Shown: piece after piece, positions 12,143-31,489 of the stretch
Layout of the letters: every line of letters starts with the position of its first letter
Position numbering within the stretch: position 1 is the first letter of the stretch
Assembly (NCBI GenBank): GCA_964600695.1
Contig: CAZRKK010000002.1
Location: 5,354 to 69,353 of the forward strand
Source of the DNA: an uncultured Candidatus Saccharibacteria bacterium
GTDB lineage: Bacteria; Patescibacteriota; Doudnabacteria; UBA920
Length of the DNA: 64,000 nt
Direction: 5' to 3'
The notes under the pieces: generated by a model
What the model was told of the DNA's origin: nothing
What the model saw: the letters and a program-made list of their open reading frames with translations, nothing else
The model's database searches: none
Made by a program: the position numbers and the translations under genes

Positions 12143-13420
12143 ATGAATAAATTAAGCTTAATTTGGAAAACTAAAGATTTGCGTTGGAAGATCTTCATGG
12201 TCATGATGTTGCTTTTAGTGACTCGTGTTTTGGCTCATGTCCCAATTCCTGGGATTAGCGTCACTGGCTTGAAGGCTTTCTTCGAAAGCAATCAATTTTT
12301 AAACTTATTGAACGTTTTTTCTGGTGGTGGACTAAGTAACTTTTCTATCGCTATGCTTGGTGTTGGACCATACATCACAGCATCTATTATTATGCAGTTG
12401 TTGGTCATGATTGTTCCTTCACTTACAGAACTACAGAAAGAAAGTGGAGAAGCTGGTCGAGTTAAAATCAACCAGTACACTCGTTTTTTGACTTTGCCAT
12501 TAGCAGTTTTGTCTGGTTTCGGAACTATTCGATTATTACAAAGCCAAGGTGGGGCAGAGTTACTTGGAACTTTCTCTCCTTTCCAGTGGTTCCTAACTTT
12601 GTTAACAGTTACCGCTGGTACAATGTTGGTTATGTGGATCGGTGAAATCATTTCCGAATACGGAATTGGTAATGGTGTATCTTTAGTAATTTTCGCCGGT
12701 ATCGTTTCTCAGTTACCTAAGAGCGTTGGTTCGTTGGTTCAGTTATATGATCCAAGCCAATTACCAACCATTATTGGATTTGCTATTGTCGCTTTGATCG
12801 TTATCGCCAGTGTAGTATTTGTGACTGAAGCTCAGCGCAATGTCCCGGTTACGTATGCAAAGCGGGTGAGTGGAGATAAACAAGTTGGTGGAGTTAACTC
12901 ATTCTTACCGTTACGTCTTAACCAAGCAGGTGTTATTCCAATCATCTTCGCAATTTCATTATTGTTGTTCCCAGCGATTATTGCTCAGTTCTTCTTAAAT
13001 GCCAAGACTCCTTTGATTGCTGAATATGCCCAAAAAGCTATTGATTTTACAAATAATCAAGGCGTTTGGTATGGCGTATCTTACTTCCTATTAGTTGTTA
13101 TATTCACTTATTTCTACACTAATATTGTTGTAAATCCAGATGAAGTTTCCGAAAACATGCAACGCAGTGGTGGCTTTGTTCCTGGTATTCGCCCCGGGAA
13201 GCAGACTGCTGATTACTTATACAAAGTTTTGAACCGCATCACTTTGCCTGGATCCTTATTCCTTGGTTTAATCGCTATCCTGCCTTTCATCTTACAAACA
13301 TGGACAGGAACCCGAGCATTAACATTTGGTGGTACTGGATTGCTGATTGTAGTAGCGGTAGTAATTGAAAGTATCAAGCAAGTCGAGGCTCAGCTAACTA
13401 TGCACGACTATCAAAAATAA
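12143..13420 (+). CDS. secY: Preprotein translocase subunit SecY.
   Basis: 10-TM SecY family (MLGVGPYITASIIMQLL, GNGVSLVIFAGIV). TATAAT at 12131-12136 ends 6 nt before the ATG, so a leaderless transcript is possible. Confidence 0.95.
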   Translation: MNKLSLIWKTKDLRWKIFMVMMLLLVTRVLAHVPIPGISVTGLKAFFESNQFLNLLNVFSGGGLSNFSIAMLGVGPYITASIIMQLLVMIVPSLTELQKESGEAGRVKINQYTRFLTLPLAVLSGFGTIRLLQSQGGAELLGTFSPFQWFLTLLTVTAGTMLVMWIGEIISEYGIGNGVSLVIFAGIVSQLPKSVGSLVQLYDPSQLPTIIGFAIVALIVIASVVFVTEAQRNVPVTYAKRVSGDKQVGGVNSFLPLRLNQAGVIPIIFAISLLLFPAIIAQFFLNAKTPLIAEYAQKAIDFTNNQGVWYGVSYFLLVVIFTYFYTNIVVNPDEVSENMQRSGGFVPGIRPGKQTADYLYKVLNRITLPGSLFLGLIAILPFILQTWTGTRALTFGGTGLLIVVAVVIESIKQVEAQLTMHDYQK

Positions 13421-13426
13421 ATTATT

Positions 13427-13461
13427 AACTCCCTCTAGTAATTAGGGGGAGTTTTTTTATT
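13427..13461 (+). terminator. Rho-independent terminator after secY.
   Basis: aactccctc...gggggagtt hairpin plus ttttttt. Confidence 0.6.
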
Positions 13462-13481
13462 GGTATTTATTAGGAGTTTTG

Positions 13482-13490
13482 TGGTATAAT
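13482..13490 (+). promoter_or_regulatory. Extended -10 promoter element (TGgTATAAT) 9 nt upstream of ATG 13500.
   Basis: tggtataat at 13482-13490. Implies a leaderless or near-leaderless mRNA for the downstream acidic protein. Confidence 0.35.
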
Positions 13491-13499
13491 ATTCATATT

Positions 13500-13874
13500 A
13501 TGGCAGAAGAAATAAGAAAAATTCCTGGATTCGAATCAGAGCAATCTGCGGAACCAAATAGCAACGAGTCCCCAGAATCAGAACAGACTGAATCTCTAGA
13601 AGCATCGTCTTCGGAAACTCTGAGTGATAATAACTTAGACCAGCAGGATTTGAACGAGACACCAATTGAAGAAGAAGTCGATACATCTAACTTATCGATC
13701 GAATCAGCTTTAGAGCCCAAATCAGGAGTGACTGCTTCTGATTCTATTGCTTCCGAAAGTAACGATGAAGTTCTTTCTGAAAGATTGTTAGCCGACAGTA
13801 AAGAATTAGAGACTGCCACCGAAGCCCGTAAACTTTTAAATGATATCTTAGGCACAACCGAAACTAAAAACTAG
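13500..13874 (+). CDS. Hypothetical highly acidic, Ser/Glu-rich, likely disordered protein (~125 aa).
   Basis: The ORF track begins at TTG 13479. The ATG at 13500 (MAEEIRK...) fits the promoter geometry. Composition is dominated by E/S/D. Confidence 0.45.
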   Translation: MAEEIRKIPGFESEQSAEPNSNESPESEQTESLEASSSETLSDNNLDQQDLNETPIEEEVDTSNLSIESALEPKSGVTASDSIASESNDEVLSERLLADSKELETATEARKLLNDILGTTETKN

Positions 13875-13909
13875 GTTTGTAAAATAAAAGCAAAAAATAA
13901 AAATTATCA

Positions 13910-16468
13910 ATGCCTTTTGGATTTGAACTCAATACTGTAATTTATGCATCACTACTACTAGGAATTTTAGTAGTAGTGTTTTTGCTTGTCGCTGCTTATT
14001 ATATTCACAGGCATTGGTATTACAGTCATGTCATTTTACCCCGCACTAAAGAGTGGGTGTTTTTGGAAATTCAAATGCCAAAAGACAACAGCGAGGATAA
14101 AGAAAAATATCAACGCGATGAAGAAAAAAAATTACTAATTGGTATTGCCGAGCAATTATTCACAACTTTATCAGGAATTAGTCACACTAATTGGTTTTGG
14201 CAACCTAAAGAATATATAAGTTTTGAAATTGCGTGTACAGACAAAAAGATTTCCTTTTATATCAATTGTCCGCGTAAGCTTCAGGAGCTAATAGAAAAAC
14301 AAGTTCAAGCTCAGTACCCTCACGCTTTTATCGAGGAGATTAAAGGCTATAATCCCTTTCCAGAAACTGGGGAGATCGAAGCTACCGAGTTAAGATTGAC
14401 CAAGCCTTATATGTATCCTTTTCGTACTTACAAGAGTATGGAAACAGATCCATTGAATGCGTTAACAAACGCTATGTCAAAACTGAGCGATGGTGATGGG
14501 GCGGTTATTCAAATGATTTTGTATCCAGCAGGGGATCACTGGCAGCATCGTCCGCGGCACATGGCTTTAGAAATTCAGCAAGGTAAAAATCCGAACATTG
14601 TTGCCAAGAGTGCGTTTGGAAGATTTGCGCGCGAGGTAGGAAGCACAGCTAAGGATGGTGTCTTAGGTGGAACTCAGTTAAGTAAAGATCAAATGCAACA
14701 ACGTACCGATTTGTCGGGACGTTATTCGGCCATCAACTTAACTCCGATGCAACAAGACATGGTTAAGCGTTTCGAAGAAAAAGCTAGCCGCCCAGGCTTC
14801 TATACCAACATTCGTATTGTCACAGCATCACCAACTCCTGGAACAGCTAAAGTGAATATGCATAATTTAGTGTCTTCATTTTTGCAGTACAACATGCCGC
14901 CGTTTAATGGTTTTAGAGTTAAGCGTCGTGCTAAGAAGCGTATTATTAAAGATTATATTTTTAGAATTTATCGCCGCTACGGACGTAAGTCTATTTTAAA
15001 TACCGAAGAATTAACTAGTATTTGGCATCTTCCGACTCCATTTTTGGAAACACCTAATATTAAATGGTTGTTATCTAAAAAAGCTCCACCACCTATAAAC
15101 TTGCAACCAGAAGGAATATTACTAGGCCGAAATATATATCGTGGGCAGGAGACACCAATTCATATGGCACGTGATGATCGTCGTCGTCACATGTATATTT
15201 TGGGACGTACTGGTGTGGGTAAAACCGAAATCATGAAATACATGTCCGTTCAAGATATCAAGAACGGTGATGGAATTTGTATTATCGATCCTCATGGTGA
15301 TTTTATTGAAGATGTTTTACCTCACATTCCAAAAGAACGAGCCGAAGATGTAATCTTATTTGACCCATTCGATACCGACAGGCCGATGGGTTTGAACATG
15401 CTCGAAGTCACTAGTGAAGGTCAAAAAGATTTTGCTGTTCAAGAAATGATCTCTATCTTTTATAAATTAGTTACAGATCCTGCGATGCTTGGACCTATGT
15501 TCGAGCACAACATGCGTAATGCCATGCTAACCTTAATGGCTGACGAAGAAAATCCTGGAACTATTGTTGAAGTCCCACGTATATTTACGGACACTGAATT
15601 CCAAAAGTATAAAGTCTCTAAATTAAATGATCCTGTGGTAAGAGCATTTTGGGAGAAAGAAATGGCCAAGACTTCCGATTTTCATAAGTCGGAAATGTTA
15701 GGTTACTTAGTTTCTAAAGTAGGCCGCTTTGTAGAAAATTCCATGATGCGAAATATTGTTGGTCAACCAAAGAGTTCTTTTAACTTCCGTGATATCATGG
15801 ATAACAAAAAAATTCTTTTGGTGAATTTAGCAAAGGGTAAAGTAGGGGAGGTGAACGCAAAATTAATTGGCTTAATTTTAGTGAGTAAAATTCAAATGGC
15901 GGCATTGTCCCGTGCAGATATTCCAGAAAGCGAACGCCAAGATTTCTATTTATATGTTGATGAATTCCAAAACTTTATTACCGATGCTTTTTCTTCTATT
16001 TTGAGCGAAGCCCGTAAGTATCGATTGAATTTGATTATTGGTCATCAGTTCTTAGCTCAGTTGGGGCAAGCAGCTGGTGCGCAAGGTGCAGCTAGTAACG
16101 ATTTACGTGATGCTGTGTTTGGTAATGCTGGTAGTATGGTAACTTTCCGTATTGGTGTAGAAGATAGTGAAGTTATGGCAAAGGAGTTTGCACCAACTTT
16201 TAATGAGTTTGATTTATTAAATGTCGATAGATTTAATGCTTTTGTAAAGTTGATGATTAATGGAACAGCCAGCAAACCATTTAACATGGCCACATACCCC
16301 TTAGCTAAACCAACTGAAGATCAAAAGAAGACAGGGGATGCTATTCGACAGTTATCAAGGTTAAAATTTGGTCGTCCACGGGCCGAAGTTGAAGCAGAAA
16401 TCCTAGAAGCCAGCCAAGTTGCTGATATGATGGCGGCTGGTCCAGGGAGTATCGAGAAAACGGTTTAA
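13910..16468 (+). CDS. N-terminally membrane-anchored P-loop NTPase (852 aa). Most similar in motif pattern to conjugative coupling proteins (TraD/TrwB/VirD4, AAA_10 / T4SS DNA-binding type) or HerA/DUF87-like ATPases.
   Basis: One N-terminal TM helix. Walker A ILGRTGVGKTE (~aa 432). ICIIDPHGDF motif. Walker B-like LYVDEFQNF (~aa 680). C-terminal region Gln/Ala/Gly-rich. Confidence 0.55.
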   Translation: MPFGFELNTVIYASLLLGILVVVFLLVAAYYIHRHWYYSHVILPRTKEWVFLEIQMPKDNSEDKEKYQRDEEKKLLIGIAEQLFTTLSGISHTNWFWQPKEYISFEIACTDKKISFYINCPRKLQELIEKQVQAQYPHAFIEEIKGYNPFPETGEIEATELRLTKPYMYPFRTYKSMETDPLNALTNAMSKLSDGDGAVIQMILYPAGDHWQHRPRHMALEIQQGKNPNIVAKSAFGRFAREVGSTAKDGVLGGTQLSKDQMQQRTDLSGRYSAINLTPMQQDMVKRFEEKASRPGFYTNIRIVTASPTPGTAKVNMHNLVSSFLQYNMPPFNGFRVKRRAKKRIIKDYIFRIYRRYGRKSILNTEELTSIWHLPTPFLETPNIKWLLSKKAPPPINLQPEGILLGRNIYRGQETPIHMARDDRRRHMYILGRTGVGKTEIMKYMSVQDIKNGDGICIIDPHGDFIEDVLPHIPKERAEDVILFDPFDTDRPMGLNMLEVTSEGQKDFAVQEMISIFYKLVTDPAMLGPMFEHNMRNAMLTLMADEENPGTIVEVPRIFTDTEFQKYKVSKLNDPVVRAFWEKEMAKTSDFHKSEMLGYLVSKVGRFVENSMMRNIVGQPKSSFNFRDIMDNKKILLVNLAKGKVGEVNAKLIGLILVSKIQMAALSRADIPESERQDFYLYVDEFQNFITDAFSSILSEARKYRLNLIIGHQFLAQLGQAAGAQGAASNDLRDAVFGNAGSMVTFRIGVEDSEVMAKEFAPTFNEFDLLNVDRFNAFVKLMINGTASKPFNMATYPLAKPTEDQKKTGDAIRQLSRLKFGRPRAEVEAEILEASQVADMMAAGPGSIEKTV

Positions 16469-16509
16469 GTAGCTGTAAGCAGCCATAATTAGTAATAAGT
16501 CAGTGGGTA

Positions 16510-16538
16510 TTGACAAAATCAACTATTTGTGATATTAT
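16510..16538 (+). promoter_or_regulatory. Consensus sigma70 promoter TTGACA-17-TATTAT with an upstream TG (extended -10) for GC-rich cassette 1.
   Basis: ttgaca at 16510-16515, 17-nt spacer ending gtga, tattat at 16533-16538. Confidence 0.5.
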
Positions 16539-16593
16539 ATTCGCAGTAGTTTTTTTGTAGTTTAAATCAATTTAGTTGGAGGACTTTGTTAAT

Positions 16594-17064
16594 ATGTATA
16601 AAAACTCGTTGGTCATGAAGATGATCCTAACGTTTGCGGCCTTTAGCGCCGTCGTTGTATTCCTGAACTACGTGGTCGGCATGCCGACTACTAAGCGCAT
16701 GAACTTCGTCTTGATGAGCTATGGTGTTGGTTCGGCCACCATCTTGGCTCTCGCGGCCGTTTTTCCGAGCCGTCTGACATCGGCGCTGTGCCGTCTTGTG
16801 CAGATTGGTTGGGCAGTGGCCATCGTTCTCGGTGGTTTTGCTATGATTATTATCATTGTGGTTGGTTTGGGGCAGTTTAACCTGCCGTTCCTATCGCTAC
16901 AGTGGTATAGCCTGTTCATGGCTTTAGGAATCTTGGGGGCCAGCGTGTTCATGTTTGTCAACGACTCGTATTTTGAAGTCGTTAACGAATATGAAAGCAA
17001 AGCTGGGAAGCCTAAGGTGGTGACACCGCCGGCAAACAGCACTTCGTCGAGCGTTTCGGCATAG
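16594..17064 (+). CDS. Small 4-TM integral membrane protein (157 aa) encoded with atypical GC/CpG-rich codons.
   Basis: SD GGAGGA at 16578-16583. Four hydrophobic helices. Hydrophilic Ser/Thr/Pro tail. Codons tcg/ccg/gcg/ctg dominate, unlike the rest of the window. Confidence 0.5.
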   Translation: MYKNSLVMKMILTFAAFSAVVVFLNYVVGMPTTKRMNFVLMSYGVGSATILALAAVFPSRLTSALCRLVQIGWAVAIVLGGFAMIIIIVVGLGQFNLPFLSLQWYSLFMALGILGASVFMFVNDSYFEVVNEYESKAGKPKVVTPPANSTSSSVSA

Positions 17065-17091
17065 AAACTCCGCACAAGGGTTAGAAGTATT

Positions 17092-17128
17092 GGGTAAGAG
17101 CGAAAATATTCGCTTTTACCCTTTTTTT
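17092..17128 (+). terminator. Rho-independent terminator after cassette 1.
   Basis: gggtaagagcgaa aatatt cgcttttaccc hairpin plus ttttttt. Confidence 0.55.
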
Positions 17129-17169
17129 ATTGCCTAAAATTGCCATTTTAAAATTTCTGTTATCAGCTA

Positions 17170-17198
17170 TTGACAAAACATCAAAAATAGTGTATACT
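17170..17198 (+). promoter_or_regulatory. Consensus sigma70 promoter TTGACA-17-TATACT with an extended-10 TG for GC-rich cassette 2.
   Basis: ttgaca at 17170-17175, 17-nt spacer ending agtg, tatact at 17193-17198. Confidence 0.5.
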
Positions 17199-17233
17199 GT
17201 TACTTAAACTAAATATTGGTTAGAAAGTGAATT

Positions 17234-17277
17234 ACCTTCAGAAATTCAGATTTATCGAGATATGGTTTTCTGAAGGT
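17234..17277 (+). promoter_or_regulatory. 11-bp perfect inverted repeat (ACCTTCAGAAA / TTTCTGAAGGT) forming a stem-loop in the ~185-nt 5' leader of cassette 2.
   Basis: Arms at 17234-17244 and 17267-17277 with a 22-nt loop. Three further short hairpins follow (17276-17293, 17303-17326, 17331-17346) before SD AAGGAGG at 17366-17372. Confidence 0.35.
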
Positions 17278-17385
17278 CATGCACGTGTATGACTGTTGTA
17301 GCGCTGTAAATAAAAAAACAGCATTGTAACGGTCAATCACATGACCAAGTTTTCAAAAACAGCCTAAGGAGGGCTAATCAATACT

Positions 17386-18102
17386 ATGCAGAAATTCATT
17401 ATTTCGTTCGTTTTTGTCGCAATGTCACTTATGGCTGTTTCGTCGGCCTCGGCCCAGAATCCGGACTTGAACGTTCCGGTGCCTTCGGGAAAGACGCAGA
17501 CCACGAAGAGCCCGGACTTGAACGTTCCGGTGCCTAACAAGTCGGTTCAAAGTTCGGCTAACGTCTATAGGACGTACCGCAACACTACGGTCGTTAAGAA
17601 GTATTCCATGAACGGCGTCGACAAAGACGCTCGTGAAGTGAATGTCGCTCAGGACATTCGTATAAAAAAACTGGAAGACGGCAAGGCTAACTCGTCGGAC
17701 GTCGAAGCAGGATTTAAGTCGGTTGACGATCGTTTCGCGGCTAAGGATCAGGTGGATGCACGACAGGACCGAGAGCTCGGATATACTTTCTGGGCTTTCA
17801 TAATCATCCCGGTAGTCTTTCTGGTTCTGGCGTTGTTGTACTTCATGTTTGGAGGCAACAATAATAACGTTCAGGTTAACGGTGGTGGACATGCACCGGC
17901 ATACGTACCTCAGGCCCAGCCTGCAGTACAGCCGATACCATACTACCAGCCTATTCCTGCACAACCCGTTCCTGCGGCACAACCGGTTCCTGCAGCCAAC
18001 CAACAGCCAAGCGTAAATGTTCCGATCAATATTGCGGTCGAGCCGATTCAGATCGATCTCCGACCGTCGTTGCGTGGAACACCGCCGGCACCCGCTCAGT
18101 AG
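17386..18102 (+). CDS. Secreted or bitopic membrane protein (238 aa): signal peptide, duplicated PDLNVPVP motif, one TM helix, proline/glutamine-rich C-terminal tail. GC/CpG-rich codon usage.
   Basis: MQKFIISFVFVAMSLMAVSSASA-QN signal peptide with an AxA site. TM FWAFIIIPVVFLVLALLYFMF. Tail is PAxQP repeats. Confidence 0.55.
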   Translation: MQKFIISFVFVAMSLMAVSSASAQNPDLNVPVPSGKTQTTKSPDLNVPVPNKSVQSSANVYRTYRNTTVVKKYSMNGVDKDAREVNVAQDIRIKKLEDGKANSSDVEAGFKSVDDRFAAKDQVDARQDRELGYTFWAFIIIPVVFLVLALLYFMFGGNNNNVQVNGGGHAPAYVPQAQPAVQPIPYYQPIPAQPVPAAQPVPAANQQPSVNVPINIAVEPIQIDLRPSLRGTPPAPAQ

Positions 18103-18120
18103 TGAGCATCTCTCTTACAG

Positions 18121-18150
18121 AGAGCAAGGTAAAACTTGCTCTCTTTTTTC
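18121..18150 (+). terminator. Rho-independent terminator after cassette 2.
   Basis: agagcaagg taaaa cttgctct hairpin plus ttttttc. It is preceded by a ctctct tac agagag hairpin. Confidence 0.55.
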
Positions 18151-18212
18151 ATTTTTATAAAAAATAGTGGTATAATTAAAACAACTTTAAATTGTTAATT
18201 CGAAACAAAAAT

Positions 18213-21200
18213 ATGGCTAAAGCCGAAATGGCTCGTCAACCAGATCAAGGTCCAGAACCGGCAATTGACTTGTCGAAAACACTCAAAACCAGTGTAGATG
18301 ATGCTAAAAATAGAGCACGACCACGAGGCCGTGATGTTGATTTTGCTATCCAGCAGAATGATATGCGCGAAGCTAATTTAAGACAGGGTCATCCAGACAT
18401 ATCTGATAAAAAAGAGTTTATTCGACGGGAAAAGGCAAAGAACGAGGCGCGTAGTAAGTCTAAATCTGAAAAGGGACCTAAAAAGAATGAAGTAATTCTT
18501 CAACCTATAGCTCCGGCAGAAAAATTAAAAGCTGTAGTTAACCAAGAAAAAGCCGCGCAGAAACAAAAACCAGAGCAAAAGCCGGAAACACAGCCAGAAC
18601 AAAAGATAGCTCAACAAGAACAAAAAGCAGCCCAAGAAACCAGTAAAGTTGTAGAAAGTGTAGTTCAGGAAAGCACTAAAGAGATGTCCGCAGAAGTGGA
18701 CAAGGCACTTGCCGTACATGCAATTAGTCCAGAACATGCTCAGCAAGCCAAAGCAGTTATAAACAATGAACAGGTAAAGCAAGGAGTTTTTTCTAGAGCT
18801 TTTGGTGCTATAAAAGACAAAGCAGTGGGTGTTAAAGAGTGGTTTGCAGATAGTCCTAGGTTAACTTCACTTTTGGTTGGTGCGGGTACTGGTATGGGTG
18901 TTCGTTACGCTGTTAAGGCTGGGTTTATTGCTGCATTTGGAGCAAACTTACCTTGGTTGGTTGCCGCAGGTGCCACTGCAGGTGGTTTACTAGAAGGTGG
19001 GCGTTCATTTTGGCGTGAATCAAAATCCTATCAATCTAAAGAGATTATGGATCGGTTCAGAAGCGCGGATTATCTAGAAAAGGCAGCCATGCTTTCTAAG
19101 CTTGAGGAAGCATACAAAACCCAAAGATTTGATGCGTCTCCAGAAGGTTACCAAGAAATTGGTACAGCTTTGGCTCATGCTCGAACAGAAATGCAACTTG
19201 AATTAGACAAAAAGGATGGCAAGTTTGCTAATCATTCCGATCGAGATAAAATTCAATATATTTTAAATTTATCACAAGGTATTAAGGGTGAAATTCATAA
19301 AGATAATCGTGGTAAGGAAGCCAGAAAGCTTATTCGTGACATCGAAAAGAGCTTAGAGTACAAGCGTGATTTTAAAGGTGTCTTACAGAACAAAAAGATG
19401 GTAGTTGCCAAGGCAGCTCTTAAAGGTGCAGCTTATGGTGGGCTGGGTTCATTAATCGGTGGGGCAGTATCACACTATTTCTTCGAAAGTGGAACAACTC
19501 AAACTGTCAGCCATGTTGTCGAGAACAGACCTACTGTGGCAGATCATTTTACAAAACATTTAGATCATCGAGGTTTAACCGGTGGTGCTCGTGATTCATT
19601 GCATGATTTGATAGAAGAACAAAGAGGTATTGATCCTAATTTTGCCGAAGGAGTCACTGTAGAGCAACTAGTTTATGCAGAAGACACTCTCGCTAAAGAG
19701 GCTATTAAAAATGGCGTTAAGTCTGGCGTTTCGGAGCATACTTGGACTCATGATGAGTTGATGCGAGCCTTAGAAAAATCTGGAGCGGTTGGAGATAGTT
19801 CTACGCTTACTGAAGCAGGAGAAAGGAATATCGGACGATTGATTTCGCATCGACCTCATTTCTTGTCCGAAGCTACCAAAGAGAAAATGCTTGATTTTAC
19901 ACCTAAAGATTTTAATGTAGTTGTTGAGCAAATTACTTCTCAACCAGAAAATATCGTTCTCTCAAACGAAGATTATGCAGCTATTATTGGTGCACTAACC
20001 CTAGTAGCGGCTTCAGAAGTGGCTAGTGCCGCCGACAGAAGAATCGCTAAGAATCGGCTTGAACAAATGCAAGCGAATCCTCCAACTGGCCAGCCAGGGG
20101 ATGGTGTAGAAACAGCTCCAGCTAATAATGTTGTATGGCCTACAGAAGGTGTTCTTACTGCAGAAGAAGCACGTGTGGATAATAGAAAATTCCCTAATGG
20201 CCCACCACCGTCACCATTTGATGGTAATGTAGAAACTACTCCTACACCTAAACCAGAGGGTAGTCCTTTTGATGACGAAAAAAAGCAAAATGCAGAGTCG
20301 ACTACTAATAAAGCAGGTAAGGTTGAGGAAATTGACGAAGATGTTGAAGCTCAAGTGGATGTACAAGATTTGCCTGGTGTAGAAAAAATCAAAGACTCGG
20401 AAGTTACTCCCGATGCAATTAATCGAAAACTGAAGAGTGCAAAAGTTAATGCAGAAGTAGTACCATGGCCTTTAGAAAAGATTACCAACAAACAGAAAGG
20501 ACAAATTAACAGATTAACTGATTTATATATTTCTTCGGCACGCAAGTTAAACGCCTTAAATATTACAAATAAGGTTGTCTTGAATTTTTATCCAACAGGT
20601 TCAAGAGAGTTAGATTTTACAGATTCTGAATTTACCGCTGGTATTCCTCTTAGTGATAAAACTTATAATAAAAAGAGCTTCGAGAGCTTAGTAGATAGGA
20701 TGATTGAAACTAAGATTTCCGAAAAGTTTGCTGAAATACAAAATAACTATGCATTTCAAACAGAGATGCCTGTCATAGGAAATTCAGAGGATGATCAAGC
20801 TGTTGAACAGTATAAAGCTTTAGATAAATTCCAGCGAAACATGGAAGCAATCGACGCAAAAGAATTAAAACGACTAACTTCTGGACTTAAGAAAGTTACA
20901 ATTGGTGACTATTCATTTATAGGTACTGATGAGGTGGTTCTACCAATGTTTATTAGAGACAACAGGGGTTATCATTATAAATCTTTCAAGCCTAACCAAT
21001 TAAAGGGTATGTTGAAAGAGTATTCCAAAGATCGGTTTGCGTTAAAGCCGATGGATTTAAAAGAGCAGAATGATAAATATCCAAATATTGGAGCAGATAA
21101 AAACTTTTACGATAATATCGAGGAAGCTGAGAGGATAAAAGCAGAAGAATTAGTATACAGTGTTATTGAAAATGAATTCAAAGATGGTTTTCCACCAAAC

Positions 21201-21806
21201 GTAAAGGTATTGTTTTCGGATAGATTCCAGTCAAAGCCAGGTGTCTTATACCTCGACATGTCAAAGTTTGACCAAGCATATATTAGTCGTCAGCTTCACC
21301 AAGGATTGCGTCGTTCTGCGCCAGATCGTTTACAGCGCACTCCTGGTCCTGTTAAAGAGCGTTTAAAGCGGGTTTCTCCTGATTATGGGAATAAAAAGTC
21401 TGACCAAGACAAAGCCATTGAAGCAGCTGTTGATAGAATAATTCGACCCGAAGATTGGGAGAAAAAAGAAACTGGGCCAGCTAATTTAAACCATATTGAA
21501 GAACAGAACGGAGAAGATGAGCTCTATAGTTTACTTGGAGACATAGATAAGAAATATCCAGGGTCTATCTCCGAAAGCATGCAAAAAAAGATCTCTAGTT
21601 ACTTAAAAGACAATAATTTATCAGCAGAGGATTTACTAACCGCCGATAAATTACCTAAAATTACGAGTGTTCTTCCTAAAAAACTTGAGCAGTACATAGC
21701 CGAAGAGTCGTTTGCTAAACTAGAAAAACTGGCAATGGCCGACGAGGATTATACTGACGAAGGCATTAGATTAAAAAATCAGTTAGAAGAATTCATCAAA
21801 AAATAA
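18213..21806 (+). CDS. Giant hypothetical protein (~1198 aa from ATG 18213; the ORF track starts at TTG 18192). K/Q/E-rich low-complexity N-terminus, a Gly/Ala-rich amphipathic membrane-hairpin-like segment, then a long hydrophilic charged body.
   Basis: TGgTATAAT at 18168-18176 upstream. Segment LTSLLVGAGTGMGVRYAVKAGFIAAFGANLPWLVAAGATAGGLL. No recognisable catalytic motifs. Confidence 0.6.
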   Translation: MAKAEMARQPDQGPEPAIDLSKTLKTSVDDAKNRARPRGRDVDFAIQQNDMREANLRQGHPDISDKKEFIRREKAKNEARSKSKSEKGPKKNEVILQPIAPAEKLKAVVNQEKAAQKQKPEQKPETQPEQKIAQQEQKAAQETSKVVESVVQESTKEMSAEVDKALAVHAISPEHAQQAKAVINNEQVKQGVFSRAFGAIKDKAVGVKEWFADSPRLTSLLVGAGTGMGVRYAVKAGFIAAFGANLPWLVAAGATAGGLLEGGRSFWRESKSYQSKEIMDRFRSADYLEKAAMLSKLEEAYKTQRFDASPEGYQEIGTALAHARTEMQLELDKKDGKFANHSDRDKIQYILNLSQGIKGEIHKDNRGKEARKLIRDIEKSLEYKRDFKGVLQNKKMVVAKAALKGAAYGGLGSLIGGAVSHYFFESGTTQTVSHVVENRPTVADHFTKHLDHRGLTGGARDSLHDLIEEQRGIDPNFAEGVTVEQLVYAEDTLAKEAIKNGVKSGVSEHTWTHDELMRALEKSGAVGDSSTLTEAGERNIGRLISHRPHFLSEATKEKMLDFTPKDFNVVVEQITSQPENIVLSNEDYAAIIGALTLVAASEVASAADRRIAKNRLEQMQANPPTGQPGDGVETAPANNVVWPTEGVLTAEEARVDNRKFPNGPPPSPFDGNVETTPTPKPEGSPFDDEKKQNAESTTNKAGKVEEIDEDVEAQVDVQDLPGVEKIKDSEVTPDAINRKLKSAKVNAEVVPWPLEKITNKQKGQINRLTDLYISSARKLNALNITNKVVLNFYPTGSRELDFTDSEFTAGIPLSDKTYNKKSFESLVDRMIETKISEKFAEIQNNYAFQTEMPVIGNSEDDQAVEQYKALDKFQRNMEAIDAKELKRLTSGLKKVTIGDYSFIGTDEVVLPMFIRDNRGYHYKSFKPNQLKGMLKEYSKDRFALKPMDLKEQNDKYPNIGADKNFYDNIEEAERIKAEELVYSVIENEFKDGFPPNVKVLFSDRFQSKPGVLYLDMSKFDQAYISRQLHQGLRRSAPDRLQRTPGPVKERLKRVSPDYGNKKSDQDKAIEAAVDRIIRPEDWEKKETGPANLNHIEEQNGEDELYSLLGDIDKKYPGSISESMQKKISSYLKDNNLSAEDLLTADKLPKITSVLPKKLEQYIAEESFAKLEKLAMADEDYTDEGIRLKNQLEEFIKK

Positions 21807-21809
21807 GCC

Positions 21810-22124
21810 ATGATTAAAGATACAATAGACAAGGTTCTTAAAGAGTTAAACGTCAACAATCTATCTGATGATGATAAGTTTGCGGTGATGGAGCAACTTA
21901 CAGAGCACTTTAACAAAATCATTCTAGACACAGTACTAGCTAATCTTAATGACGAGCAACTCCTCGAGTTTAAGAATATGGTTGATCTGGAGGATTTAGA
22001 TAAAATGGAAGAAGGAATTGCTCTTATTGTAGCCAAAATTCCCGCAATAAACTTTAAAATCGAAGAAGCCATTAATAATGAAATCGCTCATATTAAAGAA
22101 TCCAAAGCGATAATCGATCGATAG
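21810..22124 (+). CDS. Small acidic all-helical protein (104 aa), translationally adjacent to the giant protein (3-nt gap). Candidate partner or chaperone.
   Basis: ATG 21810 follows the TAA at 21804-21806. pI is clearly acidic (D/E-rich). Leucine-rich heptad-like pattern. Confidence 0.5.
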   Translation: MIKDTIDKVLKELNVNNLSDDDKFAVMEQLTEHFNKIILDTVLANLNDEQLLEFKNMVDLEDLDKMEEGIALIVAKIPAINFKIEEAINNEIAHIKESKAIIDR

Positions 22125-22234
22125 TTACTTTCTTTTTAAACATAGTTGTGGTATAGTTCTGGTAACTGTCTAGGACTGAATTTATTGCGGAAACAGAAAT
22201 CAAAATTTAAAAATCAAAGAAAACCAAAAACAAA

Positions 22235-22882
22235 ATGGATAAATCAGCAAATTTTGCTTTGATCGTGCAAATGATCGAAGCTGCAGAAAAGAATATTCAA
22301 TCGGCTAAGCATTTATTGCGAGAAATGGCCGGTGGAACTGTATCTAAATCTTCCACTAACTTTTTAGAAAAGGCTAGTGGTCTTGATGTTAGTCAAGGTG
22401 GTAAAGTTGTCGAGGGTGTGTTTGATGGACAAAACATGATTGGTCCGGATAGCAAACAGTACCCAGTTCCAGCTAATTATGCATCCAAATCCAAATTAGT
22501 TGAAGGTGATGTGCTTAAATTAACAATCGCAGATGACGGCTCGTTTATTTATAAGCAGATTGGGCCAGTTGAGCGTCGCAAGTTGATTGGTGTGTTAATG
22601 CAGGACGAAAATGGTGATTATAAAGTTATCGCAGATGGCAAAACTTTTCGGGTTTTATTGGCTTCACTTACTTATTTTAAAGCTCAGGGTGGTGACGAAG
22701 TAACTATTGTTGTCCCTAGTGAAGGTGATACTCAATGGGCTGCAGTAGAAAATGTGATCAAGCATTTAGGTGGTGACGGAAGTTCCGACGGGGAATTTAG
22801 TGCATCCGCTGGGCTGCAAGACCAAAAAGATGAAGACATGGAAGCTGAGGGTTTAGCCTCTGGCGAGACAGAAGAATTTTAA
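22235..22882 (+). CDS. Hypothetical protein (215 aa) with an acidic C-terminal tail.
   Basis: Clean ORF with an A-rich leader. No family recognised. Confidence 0.5.
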   Translation: MDKSANFALIVQMIEAAEKNIQSAKHLLREMAGGTVSKSSTNFLEKASGLDVSQGGKVVEGVFDGQNMIGPDSKQYPVPANYASKSKLVEGDVLKLTIADDGSFIYKQIGPVERRKLIGVLMQDENGDYKVIADGKTFRVLLASLTYFKAQGGDEVTIVVPSEGDTQWAAVENVIKHLGGDGSSDGEFSASAGLQDQKDEDMEAEGLASGETEEF

Positions 22883-22909
22883 TTTTTAATCTTAATTAGG
22901 ATTAGTTTT

Positions 22910-23578
22910 ATGGAAGGTCAGTTGCTTACATTCAATCAAAAACTAACTCAATTGCTGGCAAATAAACCAGTTATTTTGCAAATTCTAAAATTTGCTGCTA
23001 TAGGTGCTCTTAACACAGCTTTAGATTTTATTATTCTCAATTATGTTACTAAAGCTTTTGGTGTGGAATCAGGACTTAATTTAGGCCTTTTAAATGTCAT
23101 TAGTTTTGGAGCAGCAATGATTCAGAGCTACTTATGGAATCGGGCATGGACCTTTGCAGCATCTAATTCTTCTCCTTTATCTAATCTATTTCGGTTGATA
23201 GTTGTTGGTGGTTTGGGGTTTGTTAGCTTTTTATTGGTGGTTATAGGTGGAATTTACAGCGTAGTCGATACCTATTACTTATTCATTTTAATAGTATTTT
23301 TAATTGCAGAAATCTTGATTTGGTATGGTTTTAACCTTAATTTAGGTAGTGATTCCAGTGTTGGTGTCGGTCATCAGTTTGGAATATTCATGATTGTTAG
23401 TTTAATTGGGTTATTGATAAATAGCGGAATTGTAGTAATTGCTTCTATGGCTCTAGCCCCGACATTATCTAATTTAATTAATGTGGATTCTGTAAAGAAT
23501 GTAGCTAAGATCCTGGCAACCATGGTTTCTTTGATCTGGAATTTTGTAGGTTATAAGCTATTTGTGTTCAAGAAATAA
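22910..23578 (+). CDS. GtrA-like polytopic membrane protein (222 aa). Apparent tandem GtrA-type halves.
   Basis: KFAAIGALNTALDFIILNYV...SYLWNRAWTF and a C-terminal NFVGYKLFVFKK pattern, typical of the GtrA family (polysaccharide/lipid-linked glycan translocation). Confidence 0.45.
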   Translation: MEGQLLTFNQKLTQLLANKPVILQILKFAAIGALNTALDFIILNYVTKAFGVESGLNLGLLNVISFGAAMIQSYLWNRAWTFAASNSSPLSNLFRLIVVGGLGFVSFLLVVIGGIYSVVDTYYLFILIVFLIAEILIWYGFNLNLGSDSSVGVGHQFGIFMIVSLIGLLINSGIVVIASMALAPTLSNLINVDSVKNVAKILATMVSLIWNFVGYKLFVFKK

Positions 23579-23612: not shown

Positions 23613-23637
23613 ACTGGCGTATAGCCAGTTTTTTTAT
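23613..23637 (+). terminator. Rho-independent terminator after the GtrA-like gene.
   Basis: actggc gtata gccagt plus ttttttt. Immediately followed by a TGgTATAAT promoter (23637-23645) for dnaX. Confidence 0.5.
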
Positions 23638-23722
23638 GGTATAATATAAGGAGCAAAGACAGTGATTTACTCAGCAAAACACTAGCAAATCTGGTATCAA
23701 AATAAATTAGAAACAAATTTAA

Positions 23723-25273
23723 ATGGCAGTATTTTACCAAACATATCGACCACAAAATTTTTTGGAAGTCATTGGCCAAGAGGCGATTGTTAAAACCCTT
23801 CAACAAGCTGTTGCAAGCGGGAAGATTGGTCATGCTTATTTGTTTACCGGCAGTCGTGGTATAGGAAAAACTACACTAGCAAGGATACTGGCTAAGGCCG
23901 CTAACTGTAATACTCTTAAAGATGGTAACCCTTGTGGGATTTGTGATATTTGTTTAAATATCGCCAATGGTTCCTTCTTGGATGTAATAGAAATTGACGC
24001 TGCATCTCATACTGGTGTAGATAACATCCGCGAACTCATCGAACATATTAGATTTCAACCTTCACAGGGTAGAACTAAAGTTTTTGTAATAGACGAAGTA
24101 CATATGCTTTCCAAAGCAGCCTTTAATGCTTTACTCAAAACTTTAGAAGAACCACCATCACATGTCTTGTTCATTTTAGCTACTACTGACATAGAAAAAG
24201 TTCCGGATACGATTATTTCTCGAACTCAGCGATTTGATTTTAGAAAGATTACTACCGATCAAATTAAAAAAGCTTTGCAACAAATTGTTAAGGTAGAAAA
24301 ATTATCTTTGCCAGAAGAGGCTATTGATGTCATTGTCGAAAATAGTGAAGGTGGTTTACGAGATGCTTTATCTCAATTATCATTAGCTGCTCATTTAGAT
24401 AGCTCTGCAAAGGCAGAAGACATTCATTTGTTGTTGGGAACAACATCACGGTCATCAGTTTTGGAGTTGTTGAATTTAATTTCCGAAGGTAAGACTTATG
24501 AGTTAAACGCTTTTTTTAACAAATTAACTCAAGCTAATTTTGATGCTGTTTCTTTTGCCAGAAAGACTTTAGTTATTTTACAGGAGCATTTAGAGGCAAA
24601 TCTTTCTGCTTCGAGTGACGGTAAAAATGGCGCTAATGATTTGATTGCAAGTCTTAGCCTTGCTCAGTTACTTTACATTATTCGATTGTTTATGCGAGCT
24701 TACAAAGAGATTGATAAAGCCTTAACTCCAGAACTTCCCTTGCTAATGGCTAGTATCGAAGCGGCGTTATTTATTAAACCTAACTCGACAATTTCTGTGG
24801 AAAAAGGCCGAAGTGAGCAAAGTAGCTCCGCGGCTACAGCATCGATAATTTCTACAAGTGAATTAGTGGATATACCAATTCAAAAGCAACCAGTTTTTGC
24901 TACAGAAAATATCGAGCCCGAGCAGGATAGTGATTTAAATTTAACAGCTGAACAGGTTAAAGAGTGGTGGCCTGGTCTTGTAGCAGAAGTGAAGGCAGTG
25001 AACAGCCCTTTGTCTACTTTGTTAAAAAATTCTCCTATCCATGAGGTTTCCGGTAATCGAGTCAGTGTAATGGTTAGATACCTTTTCCATAAAGAACATT
25101 TAGAAAATGCCAAGATTCGCGTGATGATTTCCAATTATCTAGGCGAAAAAGCTGGTGGAAACGTAGAATTTAGAGTAGTGATCCAAAAAGATTCGGTTGG
25201 AGAACAAATCGTTGATACGGCCTCTGCTGTATCTGATGCAATAAAAATATTCGGTGGCGAATTGGTGGAGTAA
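23723..25273 (+). CDS. dnaX: DNA polymerase III subunit gamma/tau.
   Basis: Walker A GSRGIGKTT. Zinc module CGICDIC. VFVIDEVHML. Sensor motifs. Confidence 0.9.
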   Translation: MAVFYQTYRPQNFLEVIGQEAIVKTLQQAVASGKIGHAYLFTGSRGIGKTTLARILAKAANCNTLKDGNPCGICDICLNIANGSFLDVIEIDAASHTGVDNIRELIEHIRFQPSQGRTKVFVIDEVHMLSKAAFNALLKTLEEPPSHVLFILATTDIEKVPDTIISRTQRFDFRKITTDQIKKALQQIVKVEKLSLPEEAIDVIVENSEGGLRDALSQLSLAAHLDSSAKAEDIHLLLGTTSRSSVLELLNLISEGKTYELNAFFNKLTQANFDAVSFARKTLVILQEHLEANLSASSDGKNGANDLIASLSLAQLLYIIRLFMRAYKEIDKALTPELPLLMASIEAALFIKPNSTISVEKGRSEQSSSAATASIISTSELVDIPIQKQPVFATENIEPEQDSDLNLTAEQVKEWWPGLVAEVKAVNSPLSTLLKNSPIHEVSGNRVSVMVRYLFHKEHLENAKIRVMISNYLGEKAGGNVEFRVVIQKDSVGEQIVDTASAVSDAIKIFGGELVE

Positions 25274-25360: not shown

Positions 25361-26995
25361 ATGTTTACTAACCCAGAACAAAAAAATAAAAAGATTACCT
25401 TTGCAGTAATAGCGATGGCGGTCGTTGCTTTGGCCGTGGTAACAATATGGCAACCAGGAGAGTTAAGCTTCACGGATAAAACAGATTACAATGCTGAGAC
25501 ACAAAGAGCTCAGGCTGAATTAGCACAATACAAAGCCTTTTTAGCGGAACTTGAACCAAATTACGAAGCTAGTCAACAGTTATTAAAAAAGATTGCTAGT
25601 GCAGATGTAGTTCGTGCAGAAGTTGAGCAGACTTTACAGACAAAGCAGAAAATTGTTATTCCACAAATCGCCAACTCCGAATTAAATATCAGCGATCGTA
25701 AGGATAAAGACTTTGTTTTAAATTATTTGAACACAGTTAGTTCCATGGTGGCTAATTACAAAAATGCAGTTCAACCCGGAACTAATGATTTATTTGTTGA
25801 TAATGCCAACTCTGCTAGTTTGGCTAGGGCTAAGTCGGAAACCGATAGATTTTTAGCAAATTTACGCGGTGTGTCTGTGCCTGCTAGTTTAGTTGAATTA
25901 CACAAAGCTAATATTGTTTCTTTTCAAAAGTACGGACAAATTTTTAATGATGCAGCAAGTTATAGCGAGGGAAGTAACATCGATCCATGGCCAAGTTTCT
26001 ACCAGAGTTACGCTGTGATCGATAATAGATTAGCTGTAGTAAGTAACGAATTAACAAAAGTTGGAAATCAGTTTGCTTTAGCCGAAGAGTTAGAGCGCGC
26101 AACAGGGCCACCATTTATTAAAGTAGCTCAAGCTCAATTAGGTGGTGTGGTAGTAGTTTCTACAGATTTAAAGCGTGATATTTTGGAAGGCATTAAAGAA
26201 GGTTTGGCTAAGTCTTTTGCAAACTTTTCCATGAAGATGCTAGATAAATTAGTCTCTCATATCGAAAAAAGTTTTGCTATTGCTAGTCAACTATATTATT
26301 CCAATGAGCTTGGTAGGTTCTATTCTGTTGAGTATATGAAGAAATTTGTTTCTGATCCACTGGACCAAAGTATTATCCAAAAGTTTTTACCCGAATACTT
26401 TTGTATCGCGCCAAACAAAAAAGATTTGAATAAAATCTTTGTAGCCAAGGCAGCCGAAAATGTGGGTAATGATATAACCATTAATCCGAATGATCCAGAC
26501 TTTGTAGAAAAACTAGCACGGTTGGGAAGTGATGAAAAAAATTATCCACAATGGTGGGAAGGTTACTATCAAGGTTTGGCAGCACAAACAAAGGCAGAGG
26601 CCGAAAGTGCTTCTACTAAAGAAGTTTTGAGCCCTGGAGTAAAAACCGGGAGAGACATAATTACTAACCAAGTTAACAAAACAGTTTCGGCAATTTTCAG
26701 TGTACAAGAAGCGGCAATTTCTGGAGCAATTAACTTAGGAACCAATAACACAGGTAGCCCTGTGAGTCAGTTAGTTTCTGGTGTGGTAGAAGGCTTGGTT
26801 AATAAATTTGTGTTTACCCCAATAAGTGGTGGAGCTTCTAGTGGCGGTGGGATTGGCGTTATCCAAGAAAAAAATGTTTGTCTACAAACTCAAGAGATTA
26901 AGCCTTTGATTCCATTACCTTCATCGGAATACGAAACACCTACAGGAACAACTACAGCTCCAGTTACATCACCACCGTTTGTACCACGTAATTAA
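25361..26995 (+). CDS. Hypothetical N-terminally membrane-anchored extracytoplasmic protein (544 aa) with a Gly/Ser/Thr/Pro-rich C-terminus.
   Basis: TM ITFAVIAMAVVALAVVTIW. No known domain recognised. Confidence 0.5.
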   Translation: MFTNPEQKNKKITFAVIAMAVVALAVVTIWQPGELSFTDKTDYNAETQRAQAELAQYKAFLAELEPNYEASQQLLKKIASADVVRAEVEQTLQTKQKIVIPQIANSELNISDRKDKDFVLNYLNTVSSMVANYKNAVQPGTNDLFVDNANSASLARAKSETDRFLANLRGVSVPASLVELHKANIVSFQKYGQIFNDAASYSEGSNIDPWPSFYQSYAVIDNRLAVVSNELTKVGNQFALAEELERATGPPFIKVAQAQLGGVVVVSTDLKRDILEGIKEGLAKSFANFSMKMLDKLVSHIEKSFAIASQLYYSNELGRFYSVEYMKKFVSDPLDQSIIQKFLPEYFCIAPNKKDLNKIFVAKAAENVGNDITINPNDPDFVEKLARLGSDEKNYPQWWEGYYQGLAAQTKAEAESASTKEVLSPGVKTGRDIITNQVNKTVSAIFSVQEAAISGAINLGTNNTGSPVSQLVSGVVEGLVNKFVFTPISGGASSGGGIGVIQEKNVCLQTQEIKPLIPLPSSEYETPTGTTTAPVTSPPFVPRN

Positions 26996-30850: not shown

Positions 30851-31489
30851 ATGCTTATTCCGGCAATATTAGAAAATAATAAAAAGAAATATTTAGAAAA
30901 TCTAAAAGCAGTTTTAGCATTGAAGAATATCAAGTCTATACAAATAGATTTTGCCGATGGGGAATTTGTGGCCACTAAAACTTTACCAATCGCCGAGATA
31001 GAACTTCCTGCAAGGTCTAAAATTTTGTTCGAAGCACATTTGATGGTTAAAGAACCCAAGGATTTTGTTTTGTATCAAAAGGCTGGGTTTAAAAAAATCA
31101 TCGTTCATTACGAAGCTTTTAAAAGTGAACTTGATTTAGAAGCAGCTATAGAAGAAATAAAAAAGTTAAAAATGATTCCTGCAATAGCCATTTCTCCAAC
31201 TAGTGAAATTTCTGTAATTCGTTATCATACTGATACAATCAAGGACTTCACTTTGTTGGCTGTGGTTCCGGGTAGGCAAGGACAAAAAATGTTACCAGAA
31301 ACTTTTGATCGACTTCGAGAATTAAGAGATCATGCCCCAGGTGCAAATATCGAGATAGATGGCGGAGTTGATGGTAAAAATATTGCTTCTTTAATAGACG
31401 CCGGCGCAACAGATTGCGTAGCAGGTTCAAGTTTACTAAGAGGTGATATTAAAGAGAATTATAAAGTGCTTATGGAGGCTTTAAAATAA
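30851..31489 (+). CDS. rpe: Ribulose-phosphate 3-epimerase-like TIM-barrel enzyme.
   Basis: IDFADGEFV, HLMV, VVPGRQGQKM, IDGGV...AGSSLL pattern matches the Rpe family. Confidence 0.75.
   Translation: MLIPAILENNKKKYLENLKAVLALKNIKSIQIDFADGEFVATKTLPIAEIELPARSKILFEAHLMVKEPKDFVLYQKAGFKKIIVHYEAFKSELDLEAAIEEIKKLKMIPAIAISPTSEISVIRYHTDTIKDFTLLAVVPGRQGQKMLPETFDRLRELRDHAPGANIEIDGGVDGKNIASLIDAGATDCVAGSSLLRGDIKENYKVLMEALK

Follow-up and report, generated by a model that had tools for sequence, protein, structure and literature searches.

A conserved VirD4/TrwB-type ATPase and a hypervariable gene slot downstream of secY in a Doudnabacteria chromosome

Introduction

The DNA described here is a 64,000-nucleotide stretch (the window) of the chromosome of an uncultured Patescibacteria bacterium of the Doudnabacteria lineage (contig CAZRKK010000002.1), in which a ribosomal-protein operon ending in secY is followed by dnaX, htrA and ruvX, by genes of glycolysis and the pentose-phosphate pathway, and by cell-wall genes. 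Between secY and dnaX lies a gene for an 852-amino-acid (aa), membrane-anchored ATPase that combines a DUF8128 domain with a coupling-protein motor of the VirD4/TrwB type (13910-16468, + strand; assigned by Pfam, motifs and sequence matches). It is preceded by a small acidic open reading frame (ORF) designated p131, and followed by a variable set of genes (p162, p238, a giant protein and p104), by a gene for a conserved 215-aa protein (p215) and by a gene for a GtrA-family membrane protein. An original prediction, made from the letters of the sequence and its ORFs, had proposed that these genes together form a secretion or host-attachment module; all of the ORFs that it named are present in their places on the + strand.

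Type IV coupling proteins (T4CPs) without a linked conjugation system are a published class in Patescibacteria. A recent survey (Microb Genom 2025, PMC12102498) reports 5,713 VirD4-type homologues in 2,918 genomes, 148 of them near virB4, as well as 109 relaxases in 103 genomes, and already raises exaptation of the orphan T4CPs as a possibility. According to the same survey these orphans are chromosomal and stand apart from virB4 and relaxase genes, which is also the situation of the window ATPase; they occur in about two copies per genome. A DUF8128 N-domain, a small upstream ORF, a p215/dnaX neighbourhood, conservation at the level of SecY and an adjacent hypervariable slot do not figure in the accessible part of that survey.

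Materials and Methods

For the comparison of gene order, 80 loci were collected from related Patescibacteria genomes, containing relatives of the ATPase that are 59-99% identical to it, with flanks of 10 kb. Checks on neighbouring genes used a wider collection of ~170 loci with flanks of about 5-10 kb. Conservation was determined in a sample of 34 loci that contain secY, the ATPase gene, p215 and dnaX, by measuring the identity of the encoded proteins to those of the window. Individual loci carry an L number where they have to be told apart.

Results

The order rplO-secY-[gap of 0.47-4.4 kb]-small acidic ORF-ATPase-[slot]-p215-GtrA-dnaX-p544-htrA-ruvX is conserved in the 80 loci. Places were kept across these related genomes by the small acidic ORF, the ATPase, p215, GtrA and dnaX alone, whereas p162, p238, the giant and p104 are found only in the closest relatives, in about 4-10 genomes, so that the comparative synteny put forward as a check on the proposed module bears out co-conservation for the first group of genes and not for the second.

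The ATPase contains the motifs GRTGVGKT, IIDPHGD and YVDEFQ, and its Walker A and B residues do not vary among 38 homologues. It scores above the Pfam cut-offs of TrwB_AAD_bind (41.3 bits against 20.5, residues 419-729) and T4SS-DNA_transf (27.7 bits against 20.1), and above that of DUF87, which covers only residues 425-479. The closest solved protein by sequence is TrwB (E 5e-8, residues 417-727), and the AlphaFold2 model of the ATPase has an all-helical stretch, residues 503-617, between Walker A and Walker B. The N-terminal 400 residues consist of one transmembrane (TM) helix, located in residues 1-37 and strongly hydrophobic (maximum Kyte-Doolittle mean 2.98), and a DUF8128 domain (PF26449) of ~370 aa. 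Of the features that define a T4CP, a P-loop nucleotide-binding domain of the FtsK/HerA superfamily, a profile match that includes the all-alpha insert, an N-terminal anchor and homology to T4CPs of conjugation clusters are present; linkage to a relaxase or VirB4 was not seen in the window or the collected loci. The closest known coupling proteins include TrwB of plasmid R388 (PDB 1e9r/1gki), DotL and Cag-beta. TrwB is anchored by two N-terminal TM helices and lacks a large N-domain, and in this respect differs from the window protein with its single helix and DUF8128 domain. The DUF8128 family comprises 2,123 clusters at 50% identity (E<=1e-3), the full-length proteins among the 150 matches listed are mostly 800-1,130 aa long, and a literature search for PF26449 or DUF8128 returned nothing.

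Other members of the superfamily were considered and rejected. As a HerA protein the ATPase scores 16 bits against an NCBIfam cut-off of 970, its DUF87 match is partial, and a NurA-like neighbour was not seen. Neither a match to the FtsK_SpoIIIE motor profile nor an FtsK motor as best structural match was obtained, and the AAA_10 or CagE_TrbE_VirB profile and the N-terminal domain expected of VirB4/TraC were not found either. The resemblance to coupling proteins that the original prediction had read from the motifs was therefore borne out, and its question whether the protein belongs with VirD4/TrwB or with HerA/FtsK can be answered: the ATPase is a VirD4/TrwB/TraD coupling-protein relative of the monoderm conjugation type, and no FtsK/HerA housekeeping enzyme.

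The architecture of DUF8128 plus T4CP motor also occurs on plasmids of Bacillus, Streptomyces, Embleya, Clostridium and archaea. The window ATPase aligns over almost its full length (residues 74-798) with the Embleya plasmid coupling protein WP_331738717.1 (BLASTP 2e-68), and its N-domain profile matches a B. subtilis plasmid protein (NRS6107_2, WP_213380696.1; hhalign 99.6%). Both of these Gram-positive-type coupling proteins have the same two-part layout of a DUF8128-like N-domain and a T4CP motor, and both are encoded directly before a replication-relaxation protein, in clusters that hold a separate AAA_10 VirB4, PrgI, TcpE and an NlpC/P60 cell-wall hydrolase, whereas the window ATPase has none of these nearby. 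Its identity amounts to 23-25% to the plasmid coupling proteins versus 66-93% inside its own clade. Relatives of VirB4, VirB6/PrgH, PrgI, TcpE or relaxases were found neither in the 64-kb window nor within ~10 kb in the ~170 loci, which leaves the suggested search for VirB4/VirB6-like partners without a hit in this range. The set that makes up a complete type IV secretion system (T4SS), VirB4 together with VirB3/PrgI, VirB6/PrgH and VirB8/PrgL in one locus, is likewise missing from the window and the related loci.

Within the sample of 34 loci, the median identity to the window is 70.9% for the ATPase, 69.2% for SecY and 68.2% for p215, followed by L15 (61%), HtrA (57%), RuvX (54%), GtrA (45%) and DnaX (42%). 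The ATPase thus diverges as slowly as SecY, which is the behaviour of a core gene and unlike that of an accessory conjugation gene.

The small acidic low-complexity protein p131 (13500-13874, +; 124 aa from the probable ATG at 13500) contains 32 D/E versus 8 K/R residues. An acidic ORF of 110-156 aa precedes the start of the ATPase gene in nearly all of 60 related loci, at a distance of ~13-50 nt, and is also seen in distant DUF8128 lineages. The sequence of this ORF diverges fast among loci; a C-terminal motif that these proteins might share was rejected, the alignment being too loose and the motif weak at best.

On the other side of the slot, p215 (22235-22882, +) is predicted to begin with a helix, to continue with two small beta-barrels and to end in an acidic tail. 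Its family comprises more than 8,000 clusters and has no Pfam or NCBIfam model, and the protein itself is without a match in Pfam, NCBIfam or the PDB sequences. The motif GVFDG...VPANYASKSKLVEGD..LKL is nearly invariant. A relationship to MraZ/AbrB, suggested by eye through the likeness of FDG...VPANYASKSKLVEGD, was not significant in hhalign. The predicted barrels look OB/S1/CSD-like, and in this clade the acidic tip resembles that of single-stranded-DNA-binding protein (SSB) and ends in EEF or EEL; the tail is not kept outside the clade. Homologues of p215 are absent from the 72,556 plasmids and 50,697 phages searched. In five loci with distant ATPases, the N-domains of which are ~29-37% identical to that of the window (L087, L088, L089, L171 and L172), p215 lies 0-1.3 kb downstream of the ATPase, with dnaX next in three of them. 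Seen from the side of p215, dnaX follows in ~55 out of 80 metagenome loci and an ATPase stands upstream in 5-8 of the 39 that have at least 3 kb of upstream sequence; therefore p215-dnaX is the more general partnership, and the adjacency of ATPase and p215 is ancient but not universal.

The GtrA-family protein of the backbone (22910-23578, +) has several TM segments and scores 59.7 bits on Pfam GtrA_DPMS_TM against a cut-off of 26.1, in agreement with its earlier description as GtrA-like; its gene follows p215 in most Doudnabacteria-type loci and in L172. The dnaX gene (23723-25273, +; Pfam) is the next in the row. Directly after dnaX, in many related genomes as well as in the window (25361-26995), stands the gene for p544, a 544-aa protein with only a weak CcmI/TPR hint and mostly 27-34% identity.

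At the upstream border, secY (12143-13420, +; Pfam SecY 357 bits) is closed by an intrinsic terminator (13427-13453, +) with a 12-bp stem containing 5 G-C pairs, followed by a T-run, as had been predicted. The ribosomal operon is interrupted after secY. Neither the 64-kb window nor the related loci gave a Pfam match for adk, map, infA or rpsM, so that the claimed absence of the canonical adk-map-infA continuation holds; a phmmer search with hand-entered queries, run without a positive control, agrees. Between secY and the acidic ORF lies a second variable slot, 0.47-4.4 kb long in other genomes and empty in the window (13421-13499). There (L020-L080) it contains a conserved 121-aa zinc-peptidase-like protein with the motif HEIGHH, and assorted enzymes of 180-250 aa. 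It had been suspected to harbour adk or map in those genomes; its contents, judged by reading the sequences, are instead Zn-peptidase-like (HEIGHH), dCTP-deaminase-like, CYTH-like and HAD-like proteins.

Besides the type found in the window, DUF8128 ATPases of other types were encountered. L086 (7572-15914) carries a longer paralogue (1,019-1,116 aa), preceded by a small ORF of its own and adjoining gyrB-gyrA, and in L088 (3558-11237) two DUF8128 ATPases stand nearly in tandem, with a p215 homologue and a Sigma70_r4/HARE-HTH gene between them. The sigma-linked type measures ~920-1080 aa, the type linked to p215 and dnaX ~850 aa. Both contexts have a parallel in S. epibionticum, for which transposon sequencing has been published (PMC10633639). 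The T4CP-like SEML1_0142 is essential in that study, and so is the 139-aa SEML1_0141 located 13 nt upstream of it, with gyrB nearby; the T4CP-like paralogue SEML1_0293 is non-essential and lies beside a Sigma70_r4/HARE-HTH gene (SEML1_0294) that is itself essential; and the P-loop domain of both ATPases starts near residue 380-400 (PMC10633639). With a TM segment before the P-loop domain, a small upstream ORF and gyrB as neighbour, SEML1_0141-0142 resembles L086, and SEML1_0293-0294 resembles L088 in the pairing of the ATPase with the Sigma70_r4/HARE-HTH gene; both would be paralogue types other than the p215-linked 852-aa ATPase of the window. A further 171-aa hypothetical protein, SEML1_0404, is encoded two genes upstream of dnaX and is essential at later time points (PMC10633639), and its layout and context make it a plausible counterpart of p215. 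The accessible part of the 2025 survey gives one, non-essential, t4cp homologue for S. epibionticum (PMC12102498).

The slot between ATPase and p215 measures 100-1,500 bp in most genomes, often with ORFs of 77 and 148 aa, and this short form with p215 directly after the ATPase is likely to be the ancestral state. In the subclade of the window it has been enlarged to between 4 and more than 10 kb, with shifting contents. Counting the window, the pair of giant and p104 occupies the slot in 7 loci, p162 in 4 and p238 in 3; another 3 loci with giant and p104 were found through homologues of the giant. Elsewhere the slot holds unrelated giants (1,163 or ~1,500 aa), acidic proteins of 360-495 aa and polytopic membrane proteins, some of them glycosyltransferase-like. 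Signatures of insertion were not found around it: there are no flanking repeats apart from the promoter boxes described below, and no tRNA genes or Rfam families at gathering threshold, neither there nor in the whole 64 kb.

In the window, the first occupant of the slot is p162 (16576-17064, +), a polytopic membrane protein with 4-5 hydrophobic segments and without a family match in Pfam or NCBIfam, the homologues of which are confined to L002, L006 and L015 among the loci analysed. The second, p238 (17386-18102, +), has N-terminal and central hydrophobic segments, corresponding to a signal peptide and one TM segment, and a Pro-rich tail; its homologues are confined to L002 and L015. Two further observations on p238 concern a 51-nt tandem duplication (17456-17535), by which PDLNVPVP is repeated just after the signal peptide, and the composition of the C-terminal third, a Pro/Gln/Ala-rich low-complexity tail. 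The G+C content of the p162-p238 stretch is 0.43-0.46 versus ~0.34-0.42 elsewhere, which confirms these two genes as GC-anomalous cassettes.

The third occupant is the lineage-specific giant (18213-21806, +), a protein of 1197 aa without a recognisable family, the start of which is most likely ATG 18213 because its homologues begin with MAK or MAN. It has 11 homologues among 5.8 billion clusters, always in the same slot, a conserved core of residues ~225-570, and no match in Pfam, NCBIfam or the PDB profiles. The description as a giant secreted or surface protein could not be verified, since a signal peptide was not found and the Gly/Ala-rich segments are weakly hydrophobic (maximum 19-residue Kyte-Doolittle mean 1.4-1.75). 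There is no export signal, anchor or match to adhesin-type domains or repeats by which it could be classed as an adhesin. Homology to the slot giants of L004, L040 and L088 was looked for with hhalign and not found, and a C-terminal signal common to the different slot giants was not apparent by eye.

The gene for p104 (21810-22124, +) starts 3 nt past the stop codon of the giant, an adjacency noted before, and encodes a small acidic helical protein that is probably a divergent relative of DUF5663 (PF18908). Its orthologues score 18.7-21.5 bits on this family, below the cut-off of 23.7, and the window protein gives no match at E<=1 and one weak precomputed match; relatives in L004 and L003 reach 47.1 and 31.9 bits, and a custom hidden Markov model (HMM) unites p104, its orthologues and these relatives with E values of 1e-29 to 1e-39. 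DUF5663-like genes were seen in four arrangements: after the giant, as in the clade of the window; immediately behind the ATPase, with an unrelated protein of ~1,500 aa next (L003 and L004); in the order giant, DUF5663, 351-aa protein, ATPase (L088); and directly upstream of the ATPase (L128 and L145). In three of the four they adjoin unrelated large proteins of roughly 950-1500 aa.

Predicted promoters and terminators mark off six or more transcription units in the region. The unit of p131 and the ATPase is headed by an extended -10 box, TGGTATAAT (13482-13490, +), which ends nine bases before ATG 13500, so that the p131 transcript is plausibly leaderless. The same box precedes the unit of giant and p104 (18168-18176, +) and, at the end of the region, dnaX (23637-23645, +). 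For p162, a promoter-like site (16510-16538, +) reads TTGACA-17-TATTAT with a TG extension and 11 of 12 consensus matches, and the gene is followed by a terminator (17092-17121, +). A near-consensus promoter (17170, +) and a terminator (18119-18144, +) enclose p238. Before p215-GtrA, reading of the sequence gave a -10-like box, TGGTATAGT (22149-22157, +), with one mismatch to the enriched TGGTATAAT motif, and a terminator follows the GtrA-like gene (23613-23629, +). Exact copies of TGGTATAAT number 7 in the window, where 0.67 are expected (13482, 18168, 23637, 48962 and 52067 on the + strand; 46371 and 56938 on the - strand), and those of the studied region are intergenic and directly after terminators. 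The box looks like the main promoter signal of the genome, to judge from its enrichment and placement, and the promoters built on it may give near-leaderless transcripts.

Elsewhere in the window, transketolase is encoded in two parts, an N-terminal gene (31489-32340) and a gene for the pyrimidine-binding and C-terminal part (34125-35135), with a gene for a 585-aa DUF2339 membrane protein (32368-34125) between the halves, an order repeated in L083. One of the few minus-strand genes (45062-46360) codes for a protein of 432 aa that has a PEGA domain and shows weak hints of a beta-propeller.

Discussion

The region downstream of secY is probably a composite of three layers rather than a single machine. 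The first layer would be a vertically inherited housekeeping backbone, rplO-secY ... p215-GtrA-dnaX-p544-htrA-ruvX. The second would be a coupling ATPase that was domesticated and fixed in this backbone with the small acidic ORF before it, and that would descend from the Gram-positive-type conjugation coupling proteins with loss of the linkage to relaxase and VirB4. The third would be the hypervariable slot, which here contains p162, p238 and the giant with p104 in three transcription units. From its family and architecture, we infer that the ATPase has a core cellular role, as a hexameric translocase or substrate receptor that is anchored in the membrane and driven by NTP; it would be enzymatically active and essential, and a link between it and the slot genes is presumptive. 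Its likeliest role would be that of an unlinked coupling ATPase of the Patescibacteria T4SS, or of a stand-alone translocase of nucleic acid or protein.

Several points weigh against this composite or loosen its parts. The loci were sampled for ATPase or p215 content and many are closely related, which limits their independence. The model of the ATPase is moderate only (mean pLDDT, the predicted local distance difference test, of 66), and its DUF8128 N-domain has no match among solved structures. The membership of SEML1_0142 and SEML1_0293 in the DUF8128 family is deduced from layout and context. A VirB4 cluster may exist elsewhere in the genome and act with the ATPase. Moreover, the contents of the slot show hints of not being random neighbours: among the ORFs of the collected loci and the window, the p104-based HMM matched 15, each within a few genes of a DUF8128 ATPase, and in seven loci the ATPase is immediately succeeded by a large acidic protein and then by a member of a second small-protein family (93-99 aa). 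This pattern resembles an arrangement of cargo plus adaptor, although the sample is biased to ATPase loci and related genomes, and we consider such an explanation of it doubtful.

Among the alternatives, the ATPase could be nothing more than the usual coupling protein for a complete T4SS whose genes lie in another part of the genome, with its location behind secY and its surroundings being incidental. Coupling-protein genes often lie far from virB4, and in Patescibacteria almost all do (PMC12102498). The T4SS cluster of Saccharibacteria, moreover, is essential and has no recognisable coupling protein, yet SEML1_0142 is essential like that T4SS (PMC10633639). Against this stand the near absence of relaxases from Patescibacteria in the same survey (PMC12102498), and a conservation at the level of SecY in a fixed chromosomal position, which conjugative coupling proteins do not usually show. 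Known coupling-protein loci also lack the conserved small ORF upstream and a recurring neighbour like p215, which is absent from the plasmids and phages searched. We regard this alternative as possible, though it is not what we would expect.

The ATPase might also be a DNA translocase exapted for uptake, transfer or segregation, with p215 as its nucleic-acid-binding partner and a tie to the neighbouring replication genes. The ancestors of the ATPase move DNA and the DNA-binding all-alpha region of TrwB is kept; p215 has predicted OB/S1/CSD-like barrels and an SSB-like tip and recurs past the ATPase in five distant lineages; and dnaX, gyrBA, dnaB and ruvC are recurrent neighbours. The linkage of p215 is mainly with dnaX, however, its acidic tail is confined to one clade, and housekeeping synteny in small genomes can last without functional coupling. 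In balance, this explanation appears unlikely.

A single degenerate T4SS-like module for export or attachment, made up of the ATPase, the giant, p104 and the membrane proteins, in which the DUF5663-like partner brings the signal-less giant to the ATPase and the ATPase drives it to the surface, is improbable. In its favour, the giant, lacking a Sec signal, would need another route of any export, DUF5663-like genes were seen beside DUF8128 ATPases only, in arrangements that mostly include unrelated large proteins, and pairs of a large acidic and a ~95-aa helical protein directly after the ATPase occur in seven more loci. However, most genomes in which the ATPase is retained at 66-80% identity lack the giant, p104, p162 and p238, the ancestral order has p215 directly after the ATPase, the units have separate predicted promoters and terminators, VirB4, VirB6 and PrgI are not nearby, nothing points to the giant being extracellular, and by eye no C-terminal signal common to the slot giants was apparent.

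The three-layer composite therefore remains our preferred reading, and the cargo-plus-adaptor idea has been weakened. A bolder version holds that the DUF8128 ATPase constitutes, with the small acidic ORF and in many lineages also with p215, an ancient essential translocation module, fixed in the Patescibacteria chromosome and derived from Gram-positive conjugation machinery, with the slot as a cargo bay from which signal-less large proteins would be recruited by DUF5663-like or 95-aa adaptors and exported by the ATPase. This is a long shot; if true, it would provide a new delivery route for giant effectors or surface proteins in episymbiotic bacteria. What appears undescribed in the searchable literature is the DUF8128 architecture, the SecY-level conservation, the p215/dnaX neighbourhood and the slot with its DUF5663-linked large proteins.

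Patescibacteria depend on other cells, and their macromolecule transport is largely obscure; the only cultured models have an essential T4SS, apparently without a coupling protein. The present comparison does away with the view of these 10 kb as one new secretion system. What the locus adds is a class of conjugation-type ATPase that is fixed in the chromosome and held as tightly as SecY, accompanied by a small partner ORF and, in several of the deep lineages, by the widespread unannotated p215 next to dnaX. Candidates for testing are thereby available in the ATPase and its small upstream ORF, in p215 and in the DUF5663 partners.

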